A DNA stretch of 64,000 nucleotides from Trypanosoma brucei (GCA_000002445.1 CM000208.1:896001-960000); one strand, 5' to 3'. Positions 19,532-42,505 are shown, counted from the stretch's first letter. The notes: a model not told the origin generated them from the sequence alone. Numbers and translations are program-made.

Positions 19532-21102
19532 CTCATTTATTAGTTCTGTTTGTTTTGTGATATAAAAGAAACCGGACAAAATATCTGGCAGCTTTTTCTC
19601 CAAGAAGAAGAGAAGGAGCTGAAAAAAATATCAACATTAATAACAGGTAAAAGTGATATATTCTAAAAAATAAGTTTTTTTTAAAAAAGGAATCAGAACT
19701 TACCGACAGAAACAATAAAAACAAAGAAAAATGAAAAAAAAAGAAAAGAAAAGTATTCCACGCATTTATTTTCCACTTCCCACAGAAATCCCGAACCTTC
19801 TTTCTTTCAATAATTTACTGATTTTGGTTTCGACATACCGTTGCTGCAAGAAATCAACGCTGTTTTGTTTTAAGGGGAAAATAAATATTATATAAACAAA
19901 CGCGTAATAAACAAATGGAGGAAAGAAAGAAAAAGATGTGCCGGTTTAAGGTTGAATATAAAGCATAAAAATGTTTGGACGCGGCAACGTTAAGAGTACT
20001 GATGTGCGCGTGTACTCTTATGCGGTCGCAGAGTTAAATAATTTATAATGACTACGGTTAAACTCCTTACTGTTCCGCTCTCTTACACCTCACTGTAACC
20101 CATTTCACTAGCACTCAACTGTATGTATGTGTTTGTTTATTACACACCCACCCTCTTTTGATTCACTACCCTCCGCCTCGACGTTATCTTGTAATGTTAC
20201 TTTCCTTCTCTTCCATTTATATAGATAAATATTTAAGGAAAAAGTAAAGTTTTTCACTCTCTCCTCAAAAAAAAAAAATGCAACAATAAGATCAAATGAA
20301 GTTTACTGGGATTTGCTGTTTTGTTAACTACAGTAAAGGTGTGATCAACTTTATTTGTATGTGAAGAAAGTGTTGAGTTTGATCGATCTGACAAGTTGTG
20401 TACTGACATAGTAGAGTAAATGAGTGAATGCGTTACGACAGCTGCGGTTGATCGATGCAACTGTGCGTACTTGATTACACGACGCCACGTCAAAGGAGCG
20501 TACCCAACGGATCGATCGATGAAAATCATATTGCTGTCTTTCTTTTACGTGGTACTTTTTCGTCGTATTTGTCTTTTTTTTTTTTTTGCGATGGCTGAGG
20601 TAGGGATCTTCAAATTTTTTTTTCAGTATGTCACCGCCACTATCTTTACTCCTAGTTTTTAGTGTCAATTTTTTTTTCATACTTTGGGGAACTGACCCCT
20701 AACTATGTCGCAATTGGTGACCCCTCCCCGCGAGAATAAATGTTAATAACAAGTTGTGAAATGCAAAAAGAAAAAGTAAATCGAATGGTTGTATAGTTTT
20801 TGAACGATGCAAATAAGTCGGTACAAGTAACAAAAGAACTTTTCTAAGTAAATATGTAGTTCCTATGTAATCTCACACTTTCACTCCCTTCCTTTGCTTT
20901 GCTTTGATATTCTATTGACATATCACTTGTTCAAATGTCGCTAAGCCCCTCCAACATATCTGCCCACTCTTATTATAATACCGTACTAAACCCAGCTGAA
21001 AGGGGGCTGAGGCGGGAGTAATACGGATATACGATTTTTTTCAGGGAAAGAAAATAGTGGAGCGACGAGTTGTACACACTTTCTTTAATATCCTGCTACA
21101 TT

Positions 21103-24100
21103 ATGTATGCGGCTGGTCGCTTCACCGTCCCGTTTCCGTTCGAGCCATATCCGTTGCAACTCCACGCCATGGAAGCAATCCGGGAGGGTCTCTCAGCGGG
21201 TGATGTTGTTGTGCTCGAATCACCTACAGGAACAGGGAAAACACAAATTCTGCTCAATGGTGTACTTTCACATATGTTCGAACCTGTCGTTACTTCAGTA
21301 GAGCATGGGATTGCAGAAAGCCATGAAGTGACTGGGGAATCGCGCCCTACCGGGGAAGTGTGTGCGGATAGTGGAGATGGTTGCCCTTCTTTCGAAGAGC
21401 ATCGTAAGCATCAAAGGAAGCGGCGTAAAAGAGAACGGGAAAAGAGAAGGAAGGAGACGTTTAACTTTGGTGGCACAAGCAGCTCAAGAGATCCGTTCCT
21501 GGTGGATCAGGATGTTCGCGAGGAGGCGCAAGAACTAAGTCGTTGTGGCGCTTTAGCAGATTGTCTGTCATCTTCATCTTCATCACGCTCATCCTCAGTG
21601 TCTCATCTGGGGGGCGAGGGAGATAAATCCGATGAAGATGTTGAAGTACAGCCTCTGAGGAAACCAAAGGTGTATTTCTCTAGTCGTACTCACACACAGT
21701 TGCAACAAGTCACAGACGAGTTGCGCCGGACCGTCTTTTGTCAGAATCTTGTCCGACGGCGTTCATGCAACTCTGTTGAAAAAGATGGCCTCGCTTCAAA
21801 GGTCTTTGAGGATGCACATAAATCTCCGTTTGTGGAACCGCGGAAACTCCGTTATGTACATGTGGCCGGGAGACAGCAACTGTGTCTTAATGCGTCTCTG
21901 AAGGCCGCTGCCGGTGGGAGCAATGAACGACTCAATGAACTATGCTTGGAGGCTATGGCGTACGAATACTCGAAGGAGGGCAAGACAGCGCGGAAACAGA
22001 AACTGCAGAGGGGCTGCGCAGATTCCTCTCTACCTGACATTGAAGATAGTTTGGGTTCGAGCACCGTTAGCAGAAGGGGTTGTGGCTACTGTCAGAAGGA
22101 GAAGCTTAAAATTCTCCGCGATTACGTGAATATTGAACCTCGCGACCTATCGCAGATGCGGGAACTGGGTCAGCGAGTCGGTGCTTGTCCGTTTCTCGTT
22201 ACACGTGAGGTTCTTCGTGGGGCGGACGTTGTGTTTATCCCGTATAGTTATCTCGTTTCATCAGAGATGCGCAATGCGCTGCTTGCGGGAAATGCAACAA
22301 ACGAGCACCCTACTGATTTAACACCTCAAACACAAGTTGTATCGCAAGGACTAAGTTCCACATGCAGAGCAGGTTCAACAAGTACACATAGTAGTTACCC
22401 TACGGTGCCCTCCAAGCAACGATGGGAAATCCAAAATGGGAGACGAGTCCCGATACTACCTCCTGATTTCAGCGGTGACGTGATTGTTGTCGATGAGGCA
22501 CATAACCTTGTGGATTACTGTCGTAATGTGACGACAGCAGAGGTAACATTGCCGGAGTTACAAGTGATACGTCGGCTGCTAGACGGATACCGCCTGCGGT
22601 ACGAAAAGAGACTACTAACTAGGAACAAACAACGTCTTCGTGAAATGGTGGCATTTGTTGACAAACTTGCACAACACTTACAGGAAGCAGGGAAGAAATC
22701 CACCCCAACTGCAACGGCAAGCACCTTTATTAACTTCACATTTGATGCTGAAGTTGATACTGTGAATGTCCACCTCTTTCTTAGTTTCTTGGATGAGAGT
22801 CGATTACTACCAAAGTTGCACGGTCTCCTGGCGCAAATGGTCGCGCAAGTGGAGGCGCAGATTAGCCAACCCTCAGGGAAGACAACGAAGTGGCGCCCAA
22901 CGTCATCATATAGCGATGAGAATATTTGTTCGGATACCACAAATGAATATGCTGACCCAATTGAGGCGCTTTTGCATTCACCGGCTGAGGATCGCCGATC
23001 GATAGCAGCCACGCTGTATCGTTTTGAAACGTTTCTACGGTGGTATGGACTATCTGACGAGTACACACGCGTGATACTAAGGCGTTTGCCCTCTGAAAAC
23101 GGCAGCAGGGAAATGTGCAGGGTTACGTTAGAGTTGCTACAACTGGAATTGGGAACGCACACGATGTTCCCTGTGCTTCAGCAGGCCCACGCCGCCGTGT
23201 TGGCGGGTGGGACGATGAAACCTCTTGCTCTAACTTGTGACCTTCTACTGAAGCAATCTGCACCAACTAAGGAGTTATCGGTGCTAAAAAACATTAGTTC
23301 TCTGCCGTGTGGAACCAGGGAAGAAGAGGCTGGCGAACAAGCTAAGAAAATTCGTTTCACAGAAGAAGGACATGTAGTTCCACCATCGTCCATAGCAGTG
23401 TTTACGTTGGCAACCGGGCCGGGTGGACAGCGTTTGGAATTTCAGCATGCTCGACGGCAGTCATGGCCAAAGATTTTTGAAGGTGTTGGTACAGCGCTTC
23501 TCAACTTTTGCCGAGTAATCCCCGCGGGAATGATAGTTTTCTTTACTTCATACGAGATAGAGGAACTTTTTGTTAATACCATTCGCAGTTCCGGTATGTA
23601 CGATACGATCAACGCAGTGAAGCGAATATTTCGGGAACCCGGGTCCGCTAGGAATGCAAGTTCTACTCCCGGTTACAGCAGTGGGTGTCAAGCCGCGGCC
23701 TCCACAACTGTTGATTCGATGCTTGAAGAGTACGCCTCATGGATTCGCTCAGAACGCTCATCTGGAGCACTTCTATTCGCCGTAATTGGGGGTAAGTTAT
23801 CGGAAGGCATTAATTTCAATGATGATCTTGGACGCGCTGTTGTTGTTGTGGGTCTTCCCTACGCCAATATCAGCGAGGTGGATCTGCAACTGCACCTTCG
23901 ACATGTGGCGGACACGCGGGTGAGAACTTTATTACCATCCTCTGCTAACATTGCTACGGGGAGCATTACCACCGATAGCACTGACCAGGTTACGGTTGTA
24001 CCTGATGGAGAATTTCCGGCATCACCATCCTCTGCAATGGAGTGGGGTTTATTGACAGACTTGTGCATGCGCTCCGTCAATCAAAGTATTGGGCGTTGCA

Positions 24101-24273
24101 TCCGTCACGCCTCTGACTACGCCGCTGTCATCCTACTGGATGCACGTTACGTTGAACGGAGAGACATACGTCGTCGTATTCCTTCATGGATGCAACCATC
24201 CATCCATGTTGCCCAAAACTTTGGCGACTGCTTCCGCCGTGTTCGGGATTTTTTTATCGAGCGGCGGAAGTGA
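21103..24273 (+). CDS. CHL1: XPD-family Fe-S DNA helicase of the DDX11/CHL1 (ChlR1) type.
   Basis: The N-terminus FPFEPYPLQLHAMEAIREGLSAGDVVVLESPTGTGKT parallels DDX11 FPFTPYSIQEDFM...ESPTGTGKS. Motif II is VVDEAHNL (DEAH). Cys residues sit at Fe-S-cluster positions (CGYC...ACPF). The C-terminus SIGRCIRHASDYAAVILLDARY parallels [22 protein letters not shown]. The track start at 21070 is TTG; the ATG is at 21103. Confidence 0.8.
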   Translation: MYAAGRFTVPFPFEPYPLQLHAMEAIREGLSAGDVVVLESPTGTGKTQILLNGVLSHMFEPVVTSVEHGIAESHEVTGESRPTGEVCADSGDGCPSFEEHRKHQRKRRKREREKRRKETFNFGGTSSSRDPFLVDQDVREEAQELSRCGALADCLSSSSSSRSSSVSHLGGEGDKSDEDVEVQPLRKPKVYFSSRTHTQLQQVTDELRRTVFCQNLVRRRSCNSVEKDGLASKVFEDAHKSPFVEPRKLRYVHVAGRQQLCLNASLKAAAGGSNERLNELCLEAMAYEYSKEGKTARKQKLQRGCADSSLPDIEDSLGSSTVSRRGCGYCQKEKLKILRDYVNIEPRDLSQMRELGQRVGACPFLVTREVLRGADVVFIPYSYLVSSEMRNALLAGNATNEHPTDLTPQTQVVSQGLSSTCRAGSTSTHSSYPTVPSKQRWEIQNGRRVPILPPDFSGDVIVVDEAHNLVDYCRNVTTAEVTLPELQVIRRLLDGYRLRYEKRLLTRNKQRLREMVAFVDKLAQHLQEAGKKSTPTATASTFINFTFDAEVDTVNVHLFLSFLDESRLLPKLHGLLAQMVAQVEAQISQPSGKTTKWRPTSSYSDENICSDTTNEYADPIEALLHSPAEDRRSIAATLYRFETFLRWYGLSDEYTRVILRRLPSENGSREMCRVTLELLQLELGTHTMFPVLQQAHAAVLAGGTMKPLALTCDLLLKQSAPTKELSVLKNISSLPCGTREEEAGEQAKKIRFTEEGHVVPPSSIAVFTLATGPGGQRLEFQHARRQSWPKIFEGVGTALLNFCRVIPAGMIVFFTSYEIEELFVNTIRSSGMYDTINAVKRIFREPGSARNASSTPGYSSGCQAAASTTVDSMLEEYASWIRSERSSGALLFAVIGGKLSEGINFNDDLGRAVVVVGLPYANISEVDLQLHLRHVADTRVRTLLPSSANIATGSITTDSTDQVTVVPDGEFPASPSSAMEWGLLTDLCMRSVNQSIGRCIRHASDYAAVILLDARYVERRDIRRRIPSWMQPSIHVAQNFGDCFRRVRDFFIERRK

Positions 24274-25067
24274 CGAATCAATGTTGTGTTTGATGGGGAG
24301 GAGGGTTGCCTGAACCGGGTGAGGTGGATGACGTCTCTGCACATTTTTTTTTCTTACTTCTTCCTGGCGGTTTGTTGTGCTAATTTGTGCGTGCGTGTCT
24401 CCTTCACTTAAGTGTGTTTTGACGATGAATACGTTACTTTTTCCTTAAATTTTTTGCATCGAAGCGGAAGTGAATAAAGGCGTCGGGGATTTGTTGCGCA
24501 CACACATTGGTTCTCGACTTCCTTCGCCCCTCGGTTACCTGAGCGGTGTAGGTGGAGGAAGGGTACAGCGAAATGGAAATCTCTCGTAGCAGCTGTGCTA
24601 AGAGATTTGTAATAGTTTTTTTTTGTGTGTGTCATGGTTTTTCATTAGTATCTATTTCACATACCTGCTTTCGCAGGTAAACTTTTTGAAATCTGTATCA
24701 TACTTGCATCTCTTTTTTTTTTTTTGTAATCAATCAGCCACAGTTGTGTTCACCTTTTTTAATAACTACTGTGACGACATATAAGTTATCGCACCACAAC
24801 TGCATGTGCTCAGCAATGGCAGGTTCTTTTTGAGGGTGGTAAAATTTTTGGCGGTTGATTATATTTTGTTTGTTGCGAATAACGTTGTTTTTGTGAGATG
24901 CGTCGCACTCTTTGTTTTTATCTGTAAAACGTATGCAACAGTTTTTTTTTTTAACCTTGATACTTCTCAAAAAAGGGGGGGAGGACGATTACGAAGTTTA
25001 CGTGCGGTCGATTAGGACGGACGAGATATTCGGAACGAGAGCAGGATTAAAAGGTGTAAAAATTGAG

Positions 25068-26237
25068 ATGTCACCGAAGAAAAACTCGGCATCGCGACCA
25101 TCAAATAACGGTGGAGGCGGAAAAACAGGGGGAGGAAACGGCAATGTCAGTCACAGAACTGACAACGAACAGAGCGGGAATAATTTATCGGAGCGCATTA
25201 TCGCCAATGAATCCCTCCTTGCAACAGAAAGTGAGAGGCATGCCACCTCTAAAAGTCTTTATGGGGATTGCACTGCACGAATATCAGGGAATCTATCCTG
25301 TATTCACGATCGTGTCCGACTGCGAGCATACGAGTCTGTACTGAGGAGTATCAAAGGCAAATCTGTATTGCACTTGGGGTGCGGAATGGGGTTGGTTTCC
25401 ATGATTGCAGCGCGAAGCCTCGCCTCCGCTGTTGTTGCAGTGGACCGTTCCGCAATTGTAGACGCCGCGCAAGTGGTGGCGAAGAAAAATGGGTTAAACA
25501 ATATTAGTTTCTTCCGGGGTGCTCTTGTGGACGTTGTTCAAAACTTTCCCGTGCGGCAGTTTGACGTCATCATCTGTGAATGGATGGGACCATTCTTGAT
25601 CAATGACCCACTGCTAGAAGAGGCTCTTTATGCCCGTAATAATTTACTCGCGAGCAACGGTGTTATGTGTCCTGACAGTTCATCCATTCACGTTGTCGGC
25701 GTCAGTGATTATTGTTTTCACATGGATACCGTGGAATTCTGGGGTAACGTATATGGTTTCAAGATGGAACCGATGAAAGCACTTGTGCAACGGGAGGTGG
25801 AGATGTGTCGTGTCCCCACCTCTAGTATCGTTACCACTACGTGTCTTGCCCACACAGTCAATATCGCATCGATTAACAATTTGGATGATAAATCGAGTTT
25901 GAACGATTTTGTGGTGCCCTTCAGCGTGCGAGCAACCAAAGACACGACGGTTAACTTTCTCACATTTTACATAGACGCCCGTTTCACCAACCCTCACGAT
26001 CCCGGTGCTAATTTTGTGTTGGGCGTCCGTCCAGGTGGCACCAATCCGTGGACGGAAACGAGTGTTGCTCTTCATGAACCCCTTCCACTGAAGGGTGGCG
26101 AAGTGTTGAGCGGTGAGTTGAAGGTGTGTTTGTTGAACCCAACTCGGGGAATTACAACCGTAGAGGTGACCGCACGCACGTCTGGTAATGTTGTAAACAT
26201 TGAGACAAAAGGCACGTACAACTACCAAAGGTATTGA
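25068..26237 (+). CDS. PRMT3: Protein arginine methyltransferase family member with degenerate catalytic loops. It is probably the inactive PRMT prozyme (TbPRMT3 / PRMT1-PRO-like).
   Basis: The class I SAM-MTase motif I VLHLGCGMGLVS is encoded at 25365-25400. The double-E loop reads CEWMGPFLINDPLLEE (second Glu replaced by Asp). The THW loop is replaced by NPW. The track start at 24912 is TTG and the T-run at 24942-24952 lies inside the track ORF, so I place the start at ATG 25068. Confidence 0.7.
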   Translation: MSPKKNSASRPSNNGGGGKTGGGNGNVSHRTDNEQSGNNLSERIIANESLLATESERHATSKSLYGDCTARISGNLSCIHDRVRLRAYESVLRSIKGKSVLHLGCGMGLVSMIAARSLASAVVAVDRSAIVDAAQVVAKKNGLNNISFFRGALVDVVQNFPVRQFDVIICEWMGPFLINDPLLEEALYARNNLLASNGVMCPDSSSIHVVGVSDYCFHMDTVEFWGNVYGFKMEPMKALVQREVEMCRVPTSSIVTTTCLAHTVNIASINNLDDKSSLNDFVVPFSVRATKDTTVNFLTFYIDARFTNPHDPGANFVLGVRPGGTNPWTETSVALHEPLPLKGGEVLSGELKVCLLNPTRGITTVEVTARTSGNVVNIETKGTYNYQRY

Positions 26238-27571: not shown

Positions 27572-30358
27572 ATGCTTCTCTCCACTTGTGTGTTTTCCAC
27601 TATGACATGTAGTATACGCAAAAAAAAACCGCATATGTTGCGCCGCAGTCGCTTGCACCTGCTAGCGGACTACCGCACGTCGTCCAAGATATCAGATGAA
27701 TTTAACAACGTATTGAATCGGAGCGGATGGGGGTTTGATCATGTCGCCGTCGACGTCGGATCTCTCTCCGGCGCGGCAGGACGTTTGACACGCGACCTTA
27801 TTGGCCAGGAGCGCGATGCGGAAACGGTGAAAATTATTCACAAACAAATCACAAATGTAATTTTGCGTCGTATTCAACCGAAGAAGTCACTCGCAATTTT
27901 CATTGACGGAAGTGAGCCGTTATGGAAAGTGCGTCACATGCGGTTATATCCGGGAAAGAAATTTGAGGGAAAGTTCTACCGGAGTGCAGCGTCGCCCATG
28001 GTTTATTCGCTTGAAGACAAACTTCGTTGTGTGGGTCCGGATCTGCGGACACCACCAAAGGAGTTTATTGTAAGTGGACCGGCAGCACCGGGGCCGGTGG
28101 AGGCAAAACTCTCTGCGTGGATGCTTGACCTCGCGACCCGTGCACTTCCGGATGGAGCGGTAACGACCCCTACAGTTACCGGAGCGGCTGCGGCTGCTTC
28201 TGCCTCGGCAGGGCCACCTGAAGTAACATTCAACGACACATTTTGCCTCATTGGAGGTAATGATGCGTTTCTATCCGCCCTCGGCGCAACACCCTTTCAC
28301 AACATCACTACCGTAACACTTCAGCAAGGAGAGATGAAATCCCTTTCCTTGAGTGAGGCACTGGAGTGGTTTGCGATGGATCATCTACTGAAAGGCGAAA
28401 CATCAATCGGTTCTGGAGGGAATGAACTTCAGAAGAGGTTGGCTTCTGTACGCACAGACATTGTACTCCTGTACTTGATGGCGAATGGTATTAGCGCGAC
28501 AGATCTTCCCGGCCTGGGCGTGAACTTCAAGGATTTGATGGAAGCCTACACTGCAGAGGAGGCTAACAAACTCTACTTATTCGGGAAAACATCTGAAGAG
28601 CGATGTTTGCGGATGTGCCCCCTTAACCTTGAGCGTGTACTAACCCACGCTACTCGGAGGACATCAACACCGACTCGTTTTTGTCAGCAGTCCGCGGATT
28701 ACCTCGAGATTCTTCTACAAACCCACTCCATGATATGCGATGGAGGCATCAAGAATTTTCGGTGGACACCCAACGACAATGACGCCGTCCCGGAGAAGCA
28801 ACCTAAAATTCCCATTGAGCGCTTTATTGGTCATCTGAAACATCTGGCTGCGCAGGGCGGAGAAACCACCGCCGTCGCTGATGTCGGGAGCACTGAACCG
28901 GGTCTTGCTGCCTCCGTCGATTGGACATTTGCGCTGACAGGGATTGAGACACTGCTTTTGAGCGCCCCCAAGGCAGAAATGATCGATCAAATTATTCCCG
29001 TATTCACAAAAGGTCACACACTTCCCGATGGCGTTGCCCAGGATATCGTGGACACGAAGAACGTCGTGGAAGCTCTTCACAAAGTGCGTCGTGTGCTACA
29101 GGTTGTTGTGACAAGCGACAACAGTGGTAATGATGACGGCAGAATAGAGCACCCAGCCTTTAACCACTATCCGACTCACTACTTTGTGCGGACCCCAGGT
29201 TCCCGCGGGCCCCCTCCTGGGTGGACGTACAAAAGTGTCAATCTGGGGGTGCGAGCCGTCGCTCTTGGCGTGAGGCACCGTGTCGCTTCGGGAATGTTGA
29301 CGGCGGCTTCTCGAGTGCTTGACAGTGGTGGCGTCTCCTCCAAGAATTCTCTCTTTGTATTTCATGTGAAGGACGGTATAACAACCCCCAGTGGCGGGGG
29401 AAACGAGGATGGCTGGTTAGAGACACCGTGCCATGAGCTGGCTGGCTCCTCTGCAAACCCAGCATCCAAGGAGATTTCAACGCTTCGGGTGGTAACCTGG
29501 AACGTGCAGTTTAGTCGTCACAGTGGCGAGCGGACGCCGTTAGGGCGTGATGGAATTGATTGGTGCACTTCAACAAGGTACGTGGCACTCGCCCAAACAT
29601 TGGAGGGGCTTGACGCTGATGTTATTGGTATGCAGGAAGTAGAGCCAGCATGGTGCAAGTATCTGTCGCAACAACCGTGGGTACGGGAGAAGTATGCCAT
29701 GACTTGCTGTGAGCATAGTCACGCCATTCAACCTTGGGGAGTCATGTTACTCGTTAGACGGTCACTCTGCGTAACGTCTACACACCACGCAAATGTTCCC
29801 GCTTTTTCAGGACATACGAGTGTGATGCCGGAAGTCACAGTGGTTGTGTCTGAAGGTGTTCCGGTGACGGTGGGTTCGATGCACCTTCTTGCTCCTTATA
29901 ACCAGAACAACATCAGTAACCGCACAACTCAACTCGACAATTTAACGAAACGACTACGCACGCGACCCCCTATTAACGGTAAGCAAGCAGGATTAATTGT
30001 TATGGGTGATTTTAATGACTGCGCGAAGAATTACTTCACCTTTCCCCCGGAAATGGGCTTTAAAGACGCTTGGTTACTTCTTCACCCCGATGAAGGTGTG
30101 AGCAGCAAATCAGGCCACACCATTGATGGCGACCGAAATCCTTACGCCGCACAGATTATTGAGAAAGAATTCTATGGACGCGCGGACCGAGTATTGTTTT
30201 CCTCTCGAAACTTACAACCTATTCAAACTGAGATTATTGGGACGACCTCTGTCCGTGAGATGGGGATCACAAAACAGGTGGACATTGACAAGGACGTTCC
30301 GGAGTATTTGTACCCGTCTGACCATTTCGGTCTCCTTGTTGAGTTTCAGGTGGTTTAG
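27572..30358 (+). CDS. Two-domain putative nuclease/phosphodiesterase. The N-terminus is a PIN/FEN1/XPG-N-like fold. The C-terminus is an endonuclease/exonuclease/phosphatase (EEP) domain of the TDP2 (5'-tyrosyl-DNA phosphodiesterase) type.
   Basis: C-terminal EEP motifs: VVTWNVQF, GMQEVEP, LIVMGDFND, and ADRVLF...PSDHFGLLVEF. The last aligns with TDP2 FDRIFF...PSDHWGLLCNL. The N-terminus HVAVDVGS...ILRRIQPKKSLAIFIDGSEPLWKVRHMRLYPGKK resembles XPG/FEN1 N-domain blocks (ILAVDISIW...FRIRPIFVFDGDAPLLKK). An alternative start is ATG 27635. Confidence 0.65.
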   Translation: MLLSTCVFSTMTCSIRKKKPHMLRRSRLHLLADYRTSSKISDEFNNVLNRSGWGFDHVAVDVGSLSGAAGRLTRDLIGQERDAETVKIIHKQITNVILRRIQPKKSLAIFIDGSEPLWKVRHMRLYPGKKFEGKFYRSAASPMVYSLEDKLRCVGPDLRTPPKEFIVSGPAAPGPVEAKLSAWMLDLATRALPDGAVTTPTVTGAAAAASASAGPPEVTFNDTFCLIGGNDAFLSALGATPFHNITTVTLQQGEMKSLSLSEALEWFAMDHLLKGETSIGSGGNELQKRLASVRTDIVLLYLMANGISATDLPGLGVNFKDLMEAYTAEEANKLYLFGKTSEERCLRMCPLNLERVLTHATRRTSTPTRFCQQSADYLEILLQTHSMICDGGIKNFRWTPNDNDAVPEKQPKIPIERFIGHLKHLAAQGGETTAVADVGSTEPGLAASVDWTFALTGIETLLLSAPKAEMIDQIIPVFTKGHTLPDGVAQDIVDTKNVVEALHKVRRVLQVVVTSDNSGNDDGRIEHPAFNHYPTHYFVRTPGSRGPPPGWTYKSVNLGVRAVALGVRHRVASGMLTAASRVLDSGGVSSKNSLFVFHVKDGITTPSGGGNEDGWLETPCHELAGSSANPASKEISTLRVVTWNVQFSRHSGERTPLGRDGIDWCTSTRYVALAQTLEGLDADVIGMQEVEPAWCKYLSQQPWVREKYAMTCCEHSHAIQPWGVMLLVRRSLCVTSTHHANVPAFSGHTSVMPEVTVVVSEGVPVTVGSMHLLAPYNQNNISNRTTQLDNLTKRLRTRPPINGKQAGLIVMGDFNDCAKNYFTFPPEMGFKDAWLLLHPDEGVSSKSGHTIDGDRNPYAAQIIEKEFYGRADRVLFSSRNLQPIQTEIIGTTSVREMGITKQVDIDKDVPEYLYPSDHFGLLVEFQVV

Positions 30359-30749
30359 CCCTCGGCATCCCGCTCACTGCCATTTGTGACCTTTCCGCTC
30401 TTCACATCGAATACCGATTTGAGTCCCCCCACATAGCAAGGTTTTAGGGCGGCAAAGTTGTTCAACGGGAGGGAAAGCTGTATTGTTTGTCTAAAAGTAG
30501 TCACTGAGCGGCTACACGTGTAAAACTGTAAGGTGGTGCATGCGTCTTGGCGACTATGACTCCACACATCAGATATTAAGATCTTATCATTTCACACTCG
30601 AGTTGAGGCTCTATTTTCCCCTTTTACCCCTATGTTTGTTTCGTTCACGATACTTTGTGGTTGCTCAAAGTGGCAACTGCACACGGTCTAGGAATAAGGA
30701 AAAGCCACTTGTCCCACCCTGTTCACTTTTCTTCCTCTCGATTTGCGCC

Positions 30750-31724
30750 ATGTCGTTTCGCTATACGAACAACTTAATAGGTGCTCTGAAGCATCGGCTA
30801 CTTTTGGAGAGCTCCTACCGCGAGATTGCAAGTAGGAAGTTCATCGGTAATTGCAGGGGTGTGGAAGTTGTTTGTAGTGGCTACGGCACTGTTCTTGCTG
30901 TCCAACTAACTGACAAGGCCGTGTGGGAGCCTTTTTATCGTAAGGGTGGTCGACCCACTGTTTCGGGCGGAGGTGATGTTAGTGGCGATGCGGAGACGGG
31001 AACACAAGGATCCGCAACCACCACAGGGGCTACAGGGTCACTGGATTTGGACAAGTTAGCGGAGAGCATAAAAACCGCTTTGTGGGATGCCACGCGGAAA
31101 ATACGGTCAGCGAAGGAAGCAGCACTGCATCGAAGTCTTTCCCATAACACGCGAATGCGGGCATCGGCCGACCTGAAGCACTGGTATGAAGAGGATGCGA
31201 ACACTCTCCGTCCGTTGGCATTCGAAGCGTTGAAGCATGAAGCTGCTACCCCATGGATGCAGCTCGTTCAACACGGAAAGAAGGAGGAGGCGGCTGCGCT
31301 ACTGAAAGAATTCGAACAAAAGGGGGACGCAGCAGAAGCGACACCAACCCGAGTTAAAGACGACAGAGTTAAGGGAACCCGGACGGAATTGAGTAACCGA
31401 GAGCAACCTCCCCTCGCATCCACGTTGAAGGCTGAGGATAGCAACCCAGCGACGATACCAATTGGATCCGTTCACCCACTGTTCACTCCCGCCCTCGTTC
31501 AAATAGAAGAGGCTGGAAGCGGCTCCGTGAGCAATGAAGCCGTTTGCCGCGCGCAGTTGTGGGAGCTTTCGCGTGATGAGCAATTGTTCTGGGAACGTGT
31601 TGAGCTTATTCGCAAGGGCCAGGTCGCCTCCATTGGTAGCAGCCACAAACGCGGTTACGCGGACGAAGCGGCATTTGCCAAGGACGACACAGAAGAAAAA
31701 GTGCAACTCCGGTTTACGCAGTAG
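30750..31724 (+). CDS. Hypothetical protein (324 aa).
   Basis: In-frame ATG at 30750 after the pyrimidine tract 30700-30740. The track ORF begins earlier at a non-ATG codon. No recognisable domain. Confidence 0.45.
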   Translation: MSFRYTNNLIGALKHRLLLESSYREIASRKFIGNCRGVEVVCSGYGTVLAVQLTDKAVWEPFYRKGGRPTVSGGGDVSGDAETGTQGSATTTGATGSLDLDKLAESIKTALWDATRKIRSAKEAALHRSLSHNTRMRASADLKHWYEEDANTLRPLAFEALKHEAATPWMQLVQHGKKEEAAALLKEFEQKGDAAEATPTRVKDDRVKGTRTELSNREQPPLASTLKAEDSNPATIPIGSVHPLFTPALVQIEEAGSGSVSNEAVCRAQLWELSRDEQLFWERVELIRKGQVASIGSSHKRGYADEAAFAKDDTEEKVQLRFTQ

Positions 31725-32279
31725 GCCTCACGACTCCGTACATGCGCATGTTTGTCTCTTAAAGGGAAACTTTTGACTAATGACTTGCATGTTGCAATGT
31801 GAGGAAAAGGTCCCTTTCGCACACGTAAACACGTCTTTACACGACACGCGGTTCTTGTGCATTCGCGCCTGCGTTACCACAGTTGTGTCGCCAACCCACT
31901 TGTTCCGCAAATTTGCTGCGCTGCTCATTCTTTGTTGTATTTCTCCCCCGTGGTTTCTTCTTTTTTTCTTCTTTTTTCTTCGTTTATACCCCACAATCAG
32001 ATGTTCCGCCGGACAAGTCGGTGCCTCGTTGAAGTGGGTGATACCTGTGTCCCCAACAACTTTGTGCACGCTACCGATCTGGCCTTCTATTTTTCCAGGT
32101 TTCAACCCCGATCTCACCTCCATCCGCACGGTATCCCTGAACTTCGCGATGCAGTGGAGCTGCTCCAACCTCCCGAAGGGAAACCTTGTAGCAGATGGTC
32201 GGCGCCTCGTTTGTTTTCCCCTGCTGCACTGGCAGCACCTGCTGCAGTGGCGGAGTGGAAAAAAAAACGTGAGAAGGCG

Positions 32280-33680
32280 ATGATGTTATTGTCCCGTGGT
32301 GAAGAGATCATGGAAAATGTAAGCGGTGTGAGGAGTGCCGCTGTGGCGGACGTTGTCCGGCCGCTGTACGCAACAAAATTTGAGCTCCTCAACGGTTTGG
32401 AGCATCTACCGCGGTCGGAGTTCGCGACGCGGATTGATGTGCACCGATTTATTGTAAAGCATGCCGGACGACTTTTATACTTTAACGATAGTTGGGATAA
32501 ATCAGATGTGAAGCATCTGGACACAACTTGTGTTATTCTAGCGCACTTTATTCGGTCTTTTTGCGCCCTTCACCAGCGACCATTTCACGTAAAGCAGGCA
32601 AATGTTAGTGACTCCAAGGCAGATCGAAATCCCTCTTCCTGGACCATGGCGGTAGTTGGTGGAGAATCTGGTGACGCAATGATTAGCTTACAAACTGTGA
32701 TGGATCGCTTGGACGAACTGCTGGCGCTGAGTGAGAAAATAACCGAGAGGCAAATGGGTGAGATGCCCGAGCTTCGCTGGAATAAACCAAAGTTGCTGTT
32801 ACTGAAAGGGACCCTTACGATCCCCCTCACAGGTAATCTGACGCATGCTCAAGAACTCGTTAATCAAGCCGCTAAAACGGTGTATGAGTTTCACCAAAGG
32901 AAGAAACCGATTGTAGACGGTCTTGTTGCTCGCAAACAGGAGCACGAGTTGGGTCTGTTCATGCTGGTTCAGGCTGAAATGGCGGCGCGAGTTTTTGATT
33001 GGACCATTAACACTGGGGAAGTAGATATGGAAGTCGTTGAGATGTTCGAAGCGGCGGCTAAGTTTTATTCCTTTCCATGCAATACACCGTTGGATGCCGA
33101 CGGCATCATGTCGGCGGAGTTGCTTGACGAACGGCGCTTTGAAGTGGATGCGTACACTTCGTGCATGCTGAGTTTTGGTAACTTCCTTCTTGGTGCGCCC
33201 AGACCCGCCGCTAAAACCCGTCGCGATGCACCGGTATTCCTTCCCAAGCAGCTATTTACTATTTCACCCATAACAACTGTGGCATCATCGTCCGATCTTA
33301 TTTACGCGGATGTGCAACGTCGTGCACCCATGACAGTGGAAGTCGCTCGTAAGCGCGCAGGCGAGGCGCTTGAACGGGGCTTAAAGTTGAATCGAGAGCT
33401 TTATCCTGACCAGAAGCAGAATCCCAAGGCTGGGTGGACGCTGTTAGCAATGGCATCGTTGTACGCAGATATGCGTGATTATTTATATGCTACTGGCCTC
33501 TTCGCCTCTGCAGAGAAGACCGTTATAGAAAATTACGGCGGTGTATCGTTGGAGCGACTTCTTGTTTCCAAATTGCGCTATGAATTTTTAGCGGGGGTTG
33601 GGTCTGAAGAGGAGGCGAAGGCATCAGCGCACGAAATCGTGCAACTCCTCAAACAAATGGACAACATGCCGCATGGATAG
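32280..33680 (+). CDS. Hypothetical protein (about 466 aa). An alternative upstream start at 32001 would add a presequence-like 93-aa extension.
   Basis: The track ORF starts at GTG 31857. In-frame ATGs are at 32001 (right after the polyY tract 31945-31990, MFRRTSRCL...) and at 32280. No recognisable domain. Confidence 0.45.
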   Translation: MMLLSRGEEIMENVSGVRSAAVADVVRPLYATKFELLNGLEHLPRSEFATRIDVHRFIVKHAGRLLYFNDSWDKSDVKHLDTTCVILAHFIRSFCALHQRPFHVKQANVSDSKADRNPSSWTMAVVGGESGDAMISLQTVMDRLDELLALSEKITERQMGEMPELRWNKPKLLLLKGTLTIPLTGNLTHAQELVNQAAKTVYEFHQRKKPIVDGLVARKQEHELGLFMLVQAEMAARVFDWTINTGEVDMEVVEMFEAAAKFYSFPCNTPLDADGIMSAELLDERRFEVDAYTSCMLSFGNFLLGAPRPAAKTRRDAPVFLPKQLFTISPITTVASSSDLIYADVQRRAPMTVEVARKRAGEALERGLKLNRELYPDQKQNPKAGWTLLAMASLYADMRDYLYATGLFASAEKTVIENYGGVSLERLLVSKLRYEFLAGVGSEEEAKASAHEIVQLLKQMDNMPHG

Positions 33681-34554: not shown

Positions 34555-36174
34555 ATGAGCACCAACGGCGGCGTTGAATGTTCGAATGCCTACATTACAG
34601 AGGGCGTTAAGCTATCCCCAATTTCGTCGGAGAAAGCTGAGAACACTCAAAACAACGACGGTGTGACACTTCTGCAACCGTCGTGGTTCCCGAGAGAGGA
34701 GCTGAAGGAAGCAGTGAATGGAAGCACACAAGCCAATCCTTTGAAAGGACCTTCGCCGACCGACCAGCCGCCACCCCCGCAAGTTCTAAGTCCGGCGCAA
34801 CCACAGTCGAGAAATGCACCAGCGTCCCTGTCTGAGTCTGTCAGGAGGTTACATGAACGCTTTCGCAATACTTCATGGCTTGAAATGATATGCATCTTCG
34901 TTATTATTACTGTTGTTATAGTCGGGCACTTCATTGAAATTATTAGCATCAAATACTGGCATTCGAAATTTCCAAATGGTAAAACGCCGGGAACACTAGC
35001 AACGTTGGTACTTCCATCGATACTATTGGCTGCGTTCATGGTGACTGTAATGTTGCTCTTTATCTTTTTCACAACTCCGTCGCTTCGATTTGCGTTTTGC
35101 TGCCAGTCCCTCGTCATGCTCTTCCGCATTGGATGCATAGATGCGATACAGAGCGGAGTCGGTGTATACTCCGTTATTAAGACACCGAATGCGCTCGCCG
35201 CGCTGGTAAAACCCGCAGCCCCGTTATTCGCAACCCTCTTTACGAAGATGTTCCTTAAAGACAAAAGGTCATACGGTAGCCCATGGCTTCTCATTTCACT
35301 TGCGTTCGTTATCGCTGGAATCCTTGTGGCCTCAATTTTTGACCTGAAGCATGGATTCAACAAGATTGGAAAGAACTCTTGGTGGGCAAGCATCTACTTG
35401 GTTGCAGTAGCGTTGAGTTCGTTGGTGAACGCGATGCAGGCGGTTTATATGTTAAAATTTACATACGACCCAAAATTCGACGAATTGTACAAGATTCGCG
35501 CTCGAGGGGGAACTGCGGTACCTTCAATGGGCTCCCAATCTACCTTGTTGAGTGCCCAAAACGTGTTGGCCCTCGGGGTTGGTAACGGAAACCACCAACT
35601 TGCCGTCGAGATGGGCAATATTCCGGCGGCACAGGAACCTGAGGACGTCGCGCGTACTGCGCTTAAGCGTTTACGACAGGGAAGGGGAACAAGCGTGAAA
35701 ATTGTCATGCTAACCATAATGTTATTGTTCCGCTTTGCTGGAACTTTAGCATTTCTTCCACTCGATGGGGTAAAACCGTGGGGCGAGAGCAACAGCATTG
35801 GCGATGCTTGGAACAACCTCATTGCTGGTGGGAGGTGCGTCGCTACGTGTGATAACAATTTACCCCCATTTGTCATGTACACTTCAGGTGTTCTCCTCAG
35901 TTACGTTGGATCAGCATACCTCAATCAGTATAGTGTGACTATGTGTTCTATCATAAAGCAAATTGCATGGCCGTTAGCCGCCCTGATACTTGTTTTTGTC
36001 CCCAGGTGGAGTATCGATCCCGTGGTGACGCCTTGGTATTTCAGCCTCGTGTCTATTTTCATCCTTTTGTTGGCTGTCCTCTTGTATATGTTTTGGGAAT
36101 GCAGCACTGGTGATGAGAAAGATAAGAATGAACGCCAGTTGAAGGAACGAATGATGTATCACTTAGCGAAGTGA
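34555..36174 (+). CDS. Polytopic membrane protein with about 10 predicted TM helices after a 110-aa hydrophilic N-terminus. It is possibly a DMT/CRT-like transporter.
   Basis: ATG 34555 (the track start at 34546 is GTG) sits downstream of the polyY tract 34369-34432. Ten hydrophobic 20-25 aa segments are arranged 6+4 around a 70-aa hydrophilic loop. The family assignment is tentative. Confidence 0.6.
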   Translation: MSTNGGVECSNAYITEGVKLSPISSEKAENTQNNDGVTLLQPSWFPREELKEAVNGSTQANPLKGPSPTDQPPPPQVLSPAQPQSRNAPASLSESVRRLHERFRNTSWLEMICIFVIITVVIVGHFIEIISIKYWHSKFPNGKTPGTLATLVLPSILLAAFMVTVMLLFIFFTTPSLRFAFCCQSLVMLFRIGCIDAIQSGVGVYSVIKTPNALAALVKPAAPLFATLFTKMFLKDKRSYGSPWLLISLAFVIAGILVASIFDLKHGFNKIGKNSWWASIYLVAVALSSLVNAMQAVYMLKFTYDPKFDELYKIRARGGTAVPSMGSQSTLLSAQNVLALGVGNGNHQLAVEMGNIPAAQEPEDVARTALKRLRQGRGTSVKIVMLTIMLLFRFAGTLAFLPLDGVKPWGESNSIGDAWNNLIAGGRCVATCDNNLPPFVMYTSGVLLSYVGSAYLNQYSVTMCSIIKQIAWPLAALILVFVPRWSIDPVVTPWYFSLVSIFILLLAVLLYMFWECSTGDEKDKNERQLKERMMYHLAK

Positions 36175-36492
36175 GCTCCTTTGGGTAGTCGTAGTGTTTT
36201 GGCTTCCATATTTCTTAATTTTTTCATTCCCACGACTGACCAGGTAGAAGAGAGCAGGTTGTGAAGCCTGTCTAAGTTCTATTATGAACAATTTAAGTAG
36301 CAGCTCGAGGGAATGAGGGAGGACGCGTTAAGTTTCATTGTGTGAATTGAAAAGGGCATATATTTATTTACTCAGGAACGCTGAGTTAATATACTGAGCC
36401 TTTTTCCGGAATCTCTTTTTTTTTTGTCTTTTCTTTTTTGTTTCCCATTACCTCTTTTATTGGGTATACTGTCCCTCACATAAATGTTTCCA

Positions 36493-36494
<2 letters not shown>

Positions 36495-36537
<43 letters not shown>
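36495..36537. repeat. (TA)21 microsatellite.
   Basis: Perfect TA run in the 3' flank of the transporter-like gene. Confidence 0.95.
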
Positions 36538-36541
<4 letters not shown>

Positions 36542-37834
36542 CATGTATTCAATAATAACATATCGCCTTTTCTGATTTCTTTTTTGTTGGTTTTTTTTAA
36601 ATACTGTGATCCTCCTTTCTTTTTTTTTTACATACTCTCTTTATTTTAGTCGTTTATCTTGCTTCTCTACCACCCCGCCACACCTCATTCCCCTCACCTT
36701 TTTTTTTCACTTTGCTATCATTGCAGTATTGGCATGATGGGAGAAGAAGCCGGAAATGGAAAAATATTTTATTGACAACATTTTTTCAGGAAAGAAAATA
36801 TATAAAAAAAATTTTTTTTTGAGGGAGGAAAGCGCGTTGCGTGAGTACGTGTGATGAAAGAGGGGAAATTGGTAATAATAACAACGCAAATAAAACACCC
36901 GCCGTGATGTGTGTGCATGTGTTTGCATGGAAAAGAGAGGAAAAAGGGAAGTCCGAGAAGGAAATTTAACAGAGGCAAAAATAAAGGGGAAGGAGAGATG
37001 GGTAAAAGGTATGTCGTGTATATTTCAACTGAATAGGATGAGATACTGCGCAGTAACCTTTTTCTTATTTTTTTTGTTTTTGTAAAACACAAATGCACAC
37101 ACACACGTGAATGAAACCAGGCGGCAGCTTGCATTTGTGACATGTAGAGTTTAAGAGGCAACGTAAGAAAAGACGGTGTAACAGGCGGAATCAGGAAAAA
37201 AAATCAAAAGAAATATCATAAATAAACAAAAATGAGATATAGTGGGAGAAGGTGTTTTGTTTCAATAATTTCCCCTCCCTTTCCTTTAAATCACCAAACT
37301 TTGACTTCTATTTCACTCCCCCCCCCATTTTTAATCATTTTGTCTTTGTTTTCTCACTTATTTTTGTCTTTTTATTTCGATTTTCATAACCTATTCTTTC
37401 CCCAATCCCTCACACACCACCACCACCACCACCTAATTACTAAATGTAAGAGGGCATAATAATAATAATAATAAGGAGGGAAGTGACGGAAGCTCTCAAA
37501 GAAAGAGGGGAAAAAAAGAAAAAAAAGGCAAAAACATACCGCTTTAGGATCCAACGCTTTCCTCCAAATAATCGTTCCTTTCTAATTTTAATTTCCTTGT
37601 TTCAAGCACCTCATGATTATATGTATGTATGTGCGAGAAACTGAAGATGATAACAAAGTTGTCATTTCTTCCATTCATACCTTAATAAAAATTAATTTAA
37701 CAATGCTAATATATTTTGAGGGCAAAACACAGGACAAAAAAACAATGCAGAAACGTTTAAAAGGGTGAGAAACGACTGTTTGTGTTTTCCCTTCTCCTTG
37801 TGGGGTGTTGAAGAAAAAAAAATGTTTCAAAGAC

Positions 37835-37915
37835 TCCTTTCTCTTTTTTTTTAAACATATTCTTCGACCAATGGTCCATTTTTTTTCTTTTTCTTTTTTC
37901 CTCCCACTTCTTTGC
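37835..37915 (+). promoter_or_regulatory. Polypyrimidine tract upstream of the P-loop gene.
   Basis: A CT-rich run about 260 nt before ATG 38179. The sequence between the tract and the ATG is purine-rich (5' UTR). Confidence 0.4.
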
Positions 37916-38178
37916 GGTGTGGAGGTGTCTCCACATTCCCAAAAAAAAAAGTGAAGAATAGATCCTACTTGTATTTCTTCCAATTTTTCACCACGAATAT
38001 TCAGTTAACTTCGATTTCTCAAACACATGCGCAGCAATCACTACACACCTCTTAATTTGCGAACTCTCTGAGTCTTTTATTGACTAAAGAAGGAAAGAAA
38101 GGAAAAAAAAAGAAAAAAACAAAATAAAACAAAAGCGGAGAAAAACTTGGGGGACACCGCCACCCCTCCGAAATTTTC

Positions 38179-40294: not shown

Positions 40295-41221
40295 ATGATG
40301 TTTCACACATTCACTGCGCTGTTTATCACGGCGACATGTGTGTCGTGCTCAAGAGCTTCCGCTGCCGCAGCAGCCGTCACAGATGCAGAGCCTGCAGCTA
40401 CCAGCGGTTCCACATCCCGTTGTACGTTACTGCAACAACTACTAGGCGTAGGACGCAGCGTAAATTTTACGAAGAGATATGTAAAGGAGCTCGTGGATCA
40501 ATCGGTGCGGGCTGAACAGGAATGCACTTATTACCTCTGGACGGCGAGAGGTAACATCACATTTTCCTCCAAAGTGCTCTACGACGGTCGAAGAAGCCGC
40601 GGGAGTAGCAACGTATACGTTAAACTCGCAGAGAGAGCTTTTGAAGAAGCTAAGTTGGATCATGAAATTCTGAGAGAAACTGTGTATAGCGTGGAACGGA
40701 ATTTGTTGGTGATTAGGTCGCAAAGCGCCGAGATGAACCGCAACGGATATGAAGCCGTTAAGGAAAGCAAAAAAGCCGTAGCCAAATTGGTGCGCTCCGC
40801 GAATCGTTATATGGGGAGATATCATGGAGGCGATGACGACATTTCGGAGACATGTAAATTAGCCCCAGCATCTGGCGTCACATTCGCCTCGTTAGAGCAT
40901 GCCATGCGGAACATTACTGACGAAATGGTCGATTCAGATGCTCTGGAAGGGGCGAGAAAAGTGTTCCGCTCGCTCGTGGAAGTGGAAGAGGCTAGAAAGA
41001 AAGCAATGCGAGTGGCTCAAGAGATAAAAGAGGGAAAACAGTTGGCACAGGGAGCGGAGGCGAGAGTTGCGGGACATGCCAACGCTGTCTTTAGTGTGAT
41101 GCGCACCAGTAAACAGAGCATGACAATTAACCATTCCAGGGGCGGAACGAACGCATCTCAATTCCTTTGGAATTGGATTAAATTCCTTTTGTTGTCGCTG
41201 ATTAGTGCCGCGGCCCCATAA
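40295..41221 (+). CDS. Predicted secreted/surface protein with a signal peptide, a coiled-coil-like middle and a C-terminal hydrophobic tail compatible with a GPI-anchor signal.
   Basis: The N-terminus is MMFHTFTALFITATCVSCSRASAAAAA. The C-terminus is ...GGTNASQFLWNWIKFLLLSLISAAAP. This is the last gene of the plus-strand array before the strand switch. Confidence 0.5.
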   Translation: MMFHTFTALFITATCVSCSRASAAAAAVTDAEPAATSGSTSRCTLLQQLLGVGRSVNFTKRYVKELVDQSVRAEQECTYYLWTARGNITFSSKVLYDGRRSRGSSNVYVKLAERAFEEAKLDHEILRETVYSVERNLLVIRSQSAEMNRNGYEAVKESKKAVAKLVRSANRYMGRYHGGDDDISETCKLAPASGVTFASLEHAMRNITDEMVDSDALEGARKVFRSLVEVEEARKKAMRVAQEIKEGKQLAQGAEARVAGHANAVFSVMRTSKQSMTINHSRGGTNASQFLWNWIKFLLLSLISAAAP

Positions 41222-42418
41222 GGTATTTTCCGTCGCAGCAGTGTATATAGTCCTTTGTTTTGATTATCGGACCTCACGTAGAGAAAAGTAATTTATTAGT
41301 TTCAAGTGTCTATAACTTAACTGTTATGTTTTACTTGTTTTTTCCCCCCCCTTCCCACCGAATGACGTCTTTTCATTTCCTTCTGTTTTTTTTAGTAAGA
41401 AAAACTTTTCTTTTGTTTTGCGGCTCTCAAAGAATATACCGTACAGGCTATAAAGTATCTCGTGCAGCTACCTTGTCAGTTGCAGAGCTTATATTCTGTT
41501 AATTCATCCTGATTCTACCTGAACTTCTAATGTTATAGTGTAATATATGTTATAGCAGCCGCACGTGCCGAAGAAAGTGGAAAGTACGTCCAACTGCGGT
41601 CATGTGCGGGAAGCGCCGTCTTTTCTTTCTTCATTTCCCTTTTGTTTCCTTTTTCAGAACATATTGGTACCGCAACATAGGTATTGTCCGATGCGTGAGT
41701 GGATACGCGGGGGTACGCGATTTGGTCGGAAAATATTTTTTTCCTGCGGCATCGTGTGCTTTTCGATAATTGAGCTAATATTTTGAGTCCCTACCTGTTA
41801 TCAAAATCTTTGTCTTTCCTCCATCTTGATTTTTACAAGGTTGGTTACAGCATTAATGGTTTTGTTTTGACACATTGCCTACGTTAAGGTTTAAGGAATT
41901 TGGACCGTTAGCGCCGTCAGGCTTTGCACACCCAAGCGCGTACACGCTCAACGCATTTTGATTCAGTCAAAGCGGGCTTCTGAGGCTTGTGGACTACCAA
42001 ACAACAACATTATTGATAATAATAATAATAATACAAAACAATGATAGCGATGGCGATGATAAAAGTGGCATTTCAGGTAGCAGCCACTTAACAACACACG
42101 TCGGAAGGCTCTGTCATTCGAAACGGTTGCGGGACTCTGAGATTTATTGACGAGATTTTCGGTTACGCACTATCCATGAGAAGCGGATGTTGTTTTGTTT
42201 CGTTTTGTTAAATTTCTTTTTTTTTTTTTTGCATCCCTCCTCGGGAAAGCGCGTGAGGAAACTTGTTGAAGGTGGTAAGTTTTTGGTGAAGGTCGGAGGC
42301 GCTGCGCCTCTTAAACGAGATTAGCTCCGTAAGTATTCGGAAGGCATTCGCGTCCCCAAACGCAACTGTGTTGAACTTTCAAATAACAAATTGAATTAGA
42401 GCGAGGAATGCTGCATAT

Positions 42419-42457: not shown

Positions 42458-42505
42458 AACCGCCAAATCTGTCTGGAAGGTTGCGCGTTGGTGCGCTGGA
42501 AAATC

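Follow-up and report, generated by a model that had tools for sequence, protein, structure and literature searches.

Within a 64,000-nucleotide stretch of Trypanosoma brucei DNA (GCA_000002445.1 CM000208.1:896001-960000; hereafter the window, numbered from its first letter), the open reading frame (ORF) at 27572..30358 on the + strand very probably encodes KREX2 (TbMP99, Tb927.10.3570), a nuclear-encoded mitochondrial subunit of the RNA editing catalytic complex (RECC) that trims U residues with a C-terminal EEP domain and carries a diverged XRN-type domain at its N-terminus. The gene, the two-domain layout, the complex and the enzymatic activity are all already known, having been described between 2003 and 2012; our analysis bears on how far the XRN-like core extends, on the loss of three of its seven catalytic acids across the family, and on the affinity of the EEP domain with TDP2.

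Results

The open reading frame encodes KREX2

An earlier note on this DNA, made without database searches, had described a single uninterrupted ORF, and a codon-by-codon check agrees: 928 aa are encoded up to a TAG stop, and every motif quoted from the translation is present (HVAVDVGS, LAIFIDGSEP, TWN, QEV, GDFND, ADRVLF and PSDHFGL). In a search of 5.8 billion proteins, an annotated T. brucei equiperdum 'RNA editing exonuclease 2' of 907 aa matched with 99% identity over 98% of the query, and the orthologous entries from T. vivax, T. conorhini, T. cruzi marinkellei and Bodo saltans carry the name 'MP99' or 'RNA editing 3' exouridylylase MP99'; full-length, co-linear orthologues span Trypanosoma, other trypanosomatids and Bodo. 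A mass of 99.4 kDa computed for the 907-aa product agrees with the name MP99, and KREX2, REX2, TbMP99 and Tb927.10.3570 are one and the same (table in PMC12936278).

All orthologues, like the annotated 907-aa protein, begin at the ORF's second methionine, 'MLRRSRL...' (pattern 'ML(R/H)R.R'); the true coding sequence is therefore most likely 27635..30358, with its start at Met22, 21 codons downstream of the first ATG. Read by eye, the sequence between the two ATGs holds a pyrimidine-rich tract followed by AG. Residue numbers below count from Met22; ORF numbering is higher by 21.

27572..30358, + strand: ORF of the earlier note, 928 aa, first ATG to TAG stop, no in-frame stop
27635..30358, + strand: likeliest KREX2 / TbMP99 coding sequence, 907 aa, 99.4 kDa, start at Met22 of the ORF
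27635..27676, + strand: presumed mitochondrial import presequence 'MLRRSRLHLLADYR', an Arg-rich N-terminus with ML.R.R conserved in orthologues

The boundary of the presumed presequence is approximate; residues 1-14 have a predicted local distance difference test score (pLDDT) below 50 in the AlphaFold (AF2) model. That both domains belong to one gene, as the earlier note had it, is borne out by the lack of an in-frame stop and by a fusion that is co-linear both in the KREX1 group and in ~17 full-length orthologues of KREX2, and we rejected on these grounds the reading of two separate genes.

The published biology of this protein is extensive. KREX2 is one of 12 common subunits of the kinetoplastid RECC, the ~20S editosome (PMC12936278), and one of its two U-specific exoribonucleases (PMC3305318). 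It is mitochondrial, is present in all three RECC isoforms within the KREPA2/KREX2/KREL1 deletion subcomplex, and has a C-terminal EEP domain with conserved catalytic residues (PMC3305318); its single-strand, U-specific 3'-5' exoribonuclease activity is lost on EEP point mutation (PMC3305318, PMC2665232). It is non-essential in either life-cycle stage, and its loss destabilises the subcomplex and displaces KREL1 from the complex (PMC3305318). The layout of a 5'-3' exonuclease motif joined to an EEP domain has already been published for KREX1 and KREX2 (PMC2665232), and XRN_N (PF03159) has been re-predicted in both by structural similarity (PMC10830352), a paper that names Worthey et al. 2003 as the source of the idea.

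These reports contradict two ideas in the earlier note: that the architecture was undescribed, and that the protein would act on topoisomerase II adducts of kinetoplast DNA (kDNA), which conflicts with RECC membership and U-specific 3'-5' exoribonuclease activity (PMC3305318, PMC2665232). The paralogue KREX1 (TbMP100, Tb927.7.1070) shares the XRN-like N-domain and the EEP C-domain, with 29% identity to KREX2 (PMC2665232), but is confined to the KREN1 (deletion) editosomes and required for growth, whereas KREX2 is in all three isoforms and dispensable (PMC3305318).

The C-terminal EEP domain is TDP2-like

The exouridylylase (exoUase) domain was recognised directly by Pfam: its Exo_endo_phos model covers ORF residues 641-918 with E 4.8e-13 and 49.8 bits (cut-off 24.5), and checking by codon placed its motif residues at N623 (TWN), E668 (QEV), D792 and N794 (GDFND), D851 (ADRVLF), and D896 and H897 (PSDHFGL). 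All seven, together with H750, are invariant in 14/14 orthologues from Trypanosoma, other trypanosomatids and bodonid-type relatives; a further 81 columns of the domain are invariant across these 14 full-length sequences, and mean column identity is 60%.

29492..30325, + strand: EEP (Exo_endo_phos) catalytic domain of the TDP2-like clade, holding the exoUase active site
29504..29566, + strand: KREX-specific insertion 'VQFSRHSGERTPLGRDGIDWC', 21 residues directly after TWN

A profile built from the 14 aligned orthologues and searched against all sequences of the Protein Data Bank (PDB) ranked TDP2 first (1.4e-5, 27.5 bits), followed by Nocturnin (6e-3), ANGEL2 (0.04), PDE12 (0.5) and CNOT6 (0.7); the whole protein, used as a single sequence in phmmer against the PDB, gave no match. 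An AlphaFold model of the domain (pLDDT 75, predicted template modelling score (pTM) 0.81) told the same story in Foldseek, where the top 39 matches were TDP2 (E ~5e-17, TM ~0.8 normalised on TDP2, ~20% identity), with Nocturnin (2e-14) and CNOT6L (1.7e-12) below them. By sequence profile and predicted fold, then, the EEP domain is nearer to TDP2 than to CCR4/Nocturnin, and on this point the earlier note was right. CCR4/CNOT6L, Nocturnin, PDE12 and ANGEL2 belong to the same EEP superfamily, and CCR4 and PDE12 also remove one kind of nucleotide from RNA ends in the 3'-5' direction, but they lie farther away than TDP2 in both the profile search and the fold comparison.

The resemblance to TDP2 (TTRAP) is nonetheless at the level of the family, within a TDP2-like EEP branch, and does not speak for a tyrosyl-DNA substrate. 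The two share the TWN, QE, GD.N and SDH motifs and a C-terminal 'FPSDH(F/W)G(L/V)L', but identity is only 20-30%, the known substrate of KREX2 is an RNA 3' end rather than a 5'-phosphotyrosyl DNA end, a Pfam scan found no UBA domain in KREX2, whose N-terminus is instead XRN-like, and KREX2 has the 21-aa insertion after TWN and 'HLLAPY' in place of 'HLES'. A second profile search found the nearest EEP relatives outside kinetoplastids at E 1e-22 to 1e-10 and 25-31% identity; they are small EEP proteins, many of them carrying the automated JGI label 'tyrosyl-DNA phosphodiesterase 2', and Streptomyces fusions. The latter ('RNA repair domain-containing protein' or 'poly(A) polymerase'; E 1e-17 to 1e-14, 27-31% identity) join the EEP domain to the RNA-repair modules PF04457, PF13563 and PF02834, and to PF04928; they differ from KREX2 in lacking both an XRN-like domain and the KREX insertion.

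The insertion itself (cited also by its stretch 'SGERTPLGRDGIDWC') hardly varies among the relatives of KREX2 and KREX1, whereas TDP2 and the bacterial and other TDP2-like EEP proteins lack it. AF2 confidence is low here (pLDDT ~43); the insertion may be a loop that confers specificity or binds a partner.

The N-terminal domain has an XRN-like core

27731..28339, + strand: XRN_N-like core at the sequence level, residues 33-235, hhalign E 9.1e-5
28340..29299, + strand: apparent rest of the XRN-like core (the earlier note's 'linker'), residues 236-555, on predicted structure only
29300..29491, + strand: interdomain segment, low confidence and poorly conserved, residues 556-619, pLDDT 33-50, variable and gap-rich in the orthologue alignment

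The two acidic motifs that had led the earlier note to propose a PIN/FEN-like nuclease fold were located by codon, with D40 of HVAVDVGS at 27752-27754 and D91 of LAIFIDGSEP at 27905-27907. The Pfam XRN_N match in this region is below threshold (ORF residues 76-124; E 0.009 with the first 200 aa, 13.2-15.8 bits against a cut-off of 22.9). We modelled residues 1-600 with AlphaFold from 16 aligned orthologues (pLDDT 76, pTM 0.81); the top 27 Foldseek matches of this model in the PDB were XRN1, XRN2 and Rat1, the best being human XRN1 (E 2.1e-13, TM 0.54, ~620-640 aligned columns). Rad2, EXO1, T5 D15, XPG and FEN1 came after the XRNs at E 4e-4 to 5e-2; the N-terminus is thus a nuclease fold, with a FEN-type enzyme not its best structural match.

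Profile comparisons point the same way. Aligned by hhalign to five XRN sequences from PDB entries, the 16-orthologue alignment matched KREX2 33-235 to Xrn1 27-249 (E 9.1e-5, probability 59%). Searched exhaustively with HMMER, 1.84 billion representative proteins yielded only 54 matches; the strong ones are the KREX family, and each of the 22 weakest (E 2e-12 to 9e-4) fits the XRN profile; the eight of these that were scanned are genuine Pfam XRN_N members (81-127 bits). On these sequence comparisons, homology of the first ~235-290 residues of KREX2 to XRN_N is established. The XRN-like core appears, from the predicted structure, to span roughly the first 555 residues, 410 of which align to XRN1, leaving no long linker; the ~400-aa segment in which the earlier note saw no domain would be the remainder of that core. 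KREX2 thus shares with XRN1 and XRN2 (Rat1) a homologous catalytic-core fold and the equivalents of D35, D86, E178, K180 and D208, but differs from them in falling below the Pfam XRN_N cut-off, in a second half that has no sequence similarity, in its fusion to an EEP domain and in its mitochondrial location.

Among the closest genuine XRN_N relatives, which are of trypanosomatid type (P0061, P0063 and P0064), and among the matches of the HMMER search is a 'Xrn1 N-terminal domain-containing protein' of T. cruzi marinkellei. It has a 'VR.D.V.L.L...GG' helix in common with KREX2 ('VRTDIVLLYLMANG', window 28436..28510) but keeps all catalytic acids, which suggests a kinetoplastid XRN paralogue as the origin of the KREX N-domain.

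Two further resemblances did not survive scrutiny. XRN CR2 motifs picked out by eye, 'DYLE' and 'LSAPKAE..IIP', were dropped because their scores were reached by 225/500 and 378/500 shuffles; the match of the 'GND' region is marginal (26/500). The only PDB matches of the N-domain profile were TAL-effector repeats, at 'ALTGIETLLLSAPKAEMIDQIIPVFTKGHTLPDGVAQDIVDTKNVVEALHKVRRVLQVV' (window 28931..29110), with E-values down to 3e-12 that are the sum of at least 10 repeats; single repeats score 4-12 bits (i-Evalue 0.4-200) and all fall on one helical stretch of 50-80 residues. We rejected this match, which is probably a chance resemblance of a helical hairpin.

Three of seven XRN catalytic acids are lost across the KREX family

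The seven catalytic acids of Xrn1 were mapped onto KREX2 through the hhalign alignment and through hmmalign of the family with an XRN-like outgroup, with the following result (the lysine at Xrn1 position 180 is included).

Xrn1 D35: KREX2 D40; D in 21/21 KREX2 orthologues
Xrn1 D86: KREX2 D91; D in 22/22 KREX2 orthologues
Xrn1 E176: KREX2 P154, codon 28094-28096; P/T/S/L in KREX2 and C/S/A in the KREX1 group
Xrn1 E178: KREX2 E156; E in 20/22 KREX2 orthologues
Xrn1 K180: KREX2 K158; K in 22/22 KREX2 orthologues
Xrn1 D206: KREX2 N209, codon 28259-28261; T/P/S/N in KREX2 orthologues (one Glu)
Xrn1 D208: KREX2 D210; 15 D and 7 E in KREX2 orthologues
Xrn1 D291: KREX2 I286, codon 28490-28492; not acidic, with the adjoining G285 invariant

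Four of the seven acids are therefore kept, among them the two aspartates (VAVDVG and FIDGS) whose conservation the earlier note had proposed to check, and three are lost. Among the 1.84 billion representative proteins, the three are lost in all KREX1/KREX2 relatives, with two exceptions at position 209. The outgroup XRN_N proteins show PGEGE.K, G.D.D and GGD/GND at exactly these columns, which validates the register; that of D291 is supported by hmmalign with the outgroup and only marginally by pairwise alignment (the 26/500 shuffles noted above). The T. rangeli MP100 orthologue of KREX1 (P0034), which also has the post-TWN insertion, shows the same three losses, and the losses are therefore old and family-wide. 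D40, D91, E156, K158 and D/E210, in turn, are nearly invariant across ~50 family members, a sign of strong constraint.

Single substitutions at E176, D206 or D291 inactivate Xrn1. Its 5'-phosphate pocket, formed by K93, Q97, R100 and R101, may also have no counterpart: in the hhalign alignment, K93 corresponds to K98 (variable), Q97 to M102, and R100/R101 to a gap beside the invariant Pro106. The KREX2 N-domain, which the earlier note had cast as a flap or 5'-3' nuclease module, is on this sequence evidence unlikely to be active as either, because three of seven catalytic acids are missing family-wide; in the KREX family it is probably a pseudo-nuclease scaffold, possibly an RNA-binding module. 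The loss of the three acids was not found stated in the accessible literature, a scope that leaves out Worthey et al. 2003, and a 2026 review makes no mention of XRN.

Leishmania retains the N-domain alone

Leishmania KREX2 has been reported to consist of the N-domain only and to be without exonuclease activity (PMC3305318), and the Leishmania proteins in our orthologue set are likewise N-domain only. One gene model, L. donovani CGC21_30205 (P0021; 984 aa), looks like a KREX2 N-domain followed by decayed EEP scraps ('SLRILAWNTQ', 'ERGYTTDGT' and 'YGRPHRALLAS') and a homologue of the downstream ORF: compared with window 27635..31724, its third part resembles the ORF at 30540..31724 ('MSFRYTNNLIGALKHRL' against 'MSFRYTNHLVATLKHRL'). 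From this composition it follows that synteny is kept and that the Leishmania EEP region is a pseudogenised remnant. In Porcisia hertigi (P0017), a complete EEP domain is still present.

Neighbouring genes and the wider window

21070..24273: XPD/Rad3-like helicase (DEAD_2 and Helicase_C_2), upstream neighbour
24912..26237: PRMT-type arginine methyltransferase (PRMT_C and methyltransferase domain), upstream neighbour
30540..31724 and 31857..33680: downstream ORFs with no Pfam match

We rejected a functional unit with these neighbours, as trypanosome polycistronic units do not imply shared function. Long ORFs all lie on the + strand up to ~41.2 kb and all on the - strand from ~43.8 kb, and cumulative GC skew peaks near 42 kb; window ~41200..43850 is thus a probable convergent strand-switch region, where two polycistronic units meet. 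AT-rich stretches occur between long ORFs at 36001..38000 (GC 0.36) and 60001..62000 (GC 0.38), against ~0.47 elsewhere, the second also with a strong AT skew (0.17). An ARAGORN scan of the whole window detected no tRNA genes.

Discussion

A proposed mechanism for KREX2 and the points that weigh against it

On the reading we prefer, KREX2 is the known U-trimming enzyme, its EEP domain catalytic and its N-domain architectural. An RNase III endonuclease would cut the mRNA at a deletion site, and the unpaired 3' uridines of the 5' fragment would enter the EEP active site, where the conserved Asn/Glu/Asp/His set and Mg2+ would hydrolyse the last phosphodiester, releasing 5'-UMP and leaving a 3'-OH. 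Trimming would repeat until a base-paired or non-U nucleotide is reached, whereupon KREL1 would seal the nick. This geometry would parallel that of TDP2, in whose reaction, too, the phosphate stays with the nucleotide when the bond is cut, and we speculate that the shared geometry may be why the KREX EEP domain and TDP2 resemble each other. The N-terminal ~555 residues, a diverged XRN-type core that would have lost three of seven acids and the 5'-phosphate pocket, would serve as a non-catalytic scaffold, perhaps a module binding RNA ends, that anchors the enzyme to KREPA2 and KREL1 in the complex; such a role would explain why Leishmania has kept the N-domain after losing the EEP domain.

Several points count against this account. 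The placing of residues 236-555 in the XRN core comes from an AlphaFold model of 16 sequences with a pLDDT of 76, and the sequence gives it no support, since residues 236-345 and 330-560, compared by hhalign with their XRN counterparts, reached only E 0.13 and 0.34; the PDB sequences searched include no experimental KREX structure. A purely structural role does not account for the strict conservation of four acids and a lysine in a 'dead' XRN site. Cultured cells can do without KREX2, and most U removal in vivo is attributed to KREX1 (PMC3305318), which leaves a catalytic role for KREX2 in vivo unproven. Finally, a role as 3' nucleotidyl phosphatases has also been proposed for the EEP domains (PMC2665232).

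Alternative explanations

This last proposal, in which the main job of the EEP domain in vivo is end-healing as a 3' nucleotidyl phosphatase, overlaps with the mechanism above and is compatible with it, and of itself we consider it unlikely without thinking it far-fetched. Double knock-down of TbMP99 and TbMP100 cuts the 3' phosphatase activity of editosomes by at least 80% (PMC2665232), EEP enzymes include phosphatases, and the TDP2-like clade includes bacterial fusions with RNA-repair and 2H-phosphoesterase domains. The evidence is indirect, however, coming from subunit knock-down rather than recombinant enzyme (PMC2665232), whereas recombinant KREX proteins show exoUase activity in the work cited by PMC3305318 and PMC2665232, and KREN1 editosomes keep exoUase activity through KREX1 (PMC3305318).

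A related and somewhat less probable idea would give the conserved remnant of the XRN site a function: D40, D91, E156, K158 and D/E210 might still bind one metal or the 5'-phosphate of the 3' fragment while the EEP domain works on the 3' end of the 5' fragment (U-trimming, possibly also removal of a 3'-phosphate or other end-healing), so that KREX1 and KREX2 would hold both RNA ends for the ligase. In a weaker variant, the TDP2-like domain may also retain a phosphotyrosyl-diesterase activity relevant in mitochondria.

KREX2 in T. brucei could instead be an evolutionary relic with an architectural role only, its EEP domain on the way to being lost as in Leishmania, a view taken up in the discussion of PMC3305318. 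We find this improbable. KREX2-null cells do grow and edit normally, with U removal done by KREX1 (PMC3305318), and the Leishmania orthologues are without EEP, the L. donovani gene model still holding decayed fragments of it; the eight catalytic residues and 81 further columns that are invariant in 14 full-length orthologues are, however, unlike a decaying domain, and double knock-down of KREX1 and KREX2 is worse than that of KREX1 alone (PMC3305318).

Poorer still are the prospects of a working 5'-3' exoribonuclease in the N-domain, as anticipated in PMC10830352, which would make KREX2 bifunctional, acting both 5'-3' and 3'-5'. The XRN fold and homology would favour it, as would the four acids and the lysine equivalent to Xrn1 K180, whose near-invariance in ~50 family members suggests selection on the site. 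Yet KREX1/KREX2 relatives lack the equivalents of E176, D206 and D291, and at the pocket residues K93, Q97, R100 and R101 the alignment shows a K98 that varies, M102, and a gap or Pro106. Leishmania KREX2, essentially the N-domain alone, has been reported without exonuclease activity (PMC3305318), and mutations in the EEP domain alone abolish the T. brucei exoUase activity (PMC2665232).

Very improbable is the DNA-repair fusion of the earlier note, in which a TDP2-type 5'-tyrosyl-DNA phosphodiesterase would clear topoisomerase II-kDNA adducts and a FEN/XRN-like nuclease would resect the freed 5' end: TDP2 is the nearest solved EEP relative by profile and fold, many of the nearest non-kinetoplastid relatives bear its name as an automated JGI label, the N-domain has a fold of the XRN/FEN superfamily, KREX2 is mitochondrial according to the literature, and the literature searched yielded no report of KREX2 assays on phosphotyrosyl substrates, but KREX2 co-purifies as a stable RECC subunit that has been shown to trim RNA 3'-5' with U specificity by means of its EEP domain (PMC3305318, PMC2665232), the N-domain is without three of seven catalytic acids and apparently without the 5'-phosphate pocket, Leishmania has lost the EEP domain though its kDNA network is just as large (PMC3305318), null mutants survive and have no reported kDNA defect (PMC3305318), other close EEP relatives are fused to modules (PF04457, PF13563 and PF02834) that point to work on RNA ends, and the Pfam scan found no TDP2-type UBA domain. 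Literature searches for a link between TDP2 and the editosome, and for one between REX2 and XRN in RNA editing, found nothing.

Implications for the editing machinery

The extent of the XRN core, the missing catalytic acids and the TDP2-like affinity of the EEP domain are refinements that may be useful to the RNA-editing field; they leave the known biology unchanged and have limited weight as a discovery. The little interest that remains is held by the XRN site, degenerate in the whole family, and by the kinship of the exoUase domain with TDP2. This EEP domain appears to belong to a TDP2-like branch in which bacterial members are joined to RNA-repair modules, and the family-wide loss of acids argues against the 5'-3' exonuclease activity anticipated in the 2024 annotation paper (PMC10830352). 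If the N-domain is indeed a pseudo-nuclease, it would join the several pseudo-enzymes already present in the editing machinery.

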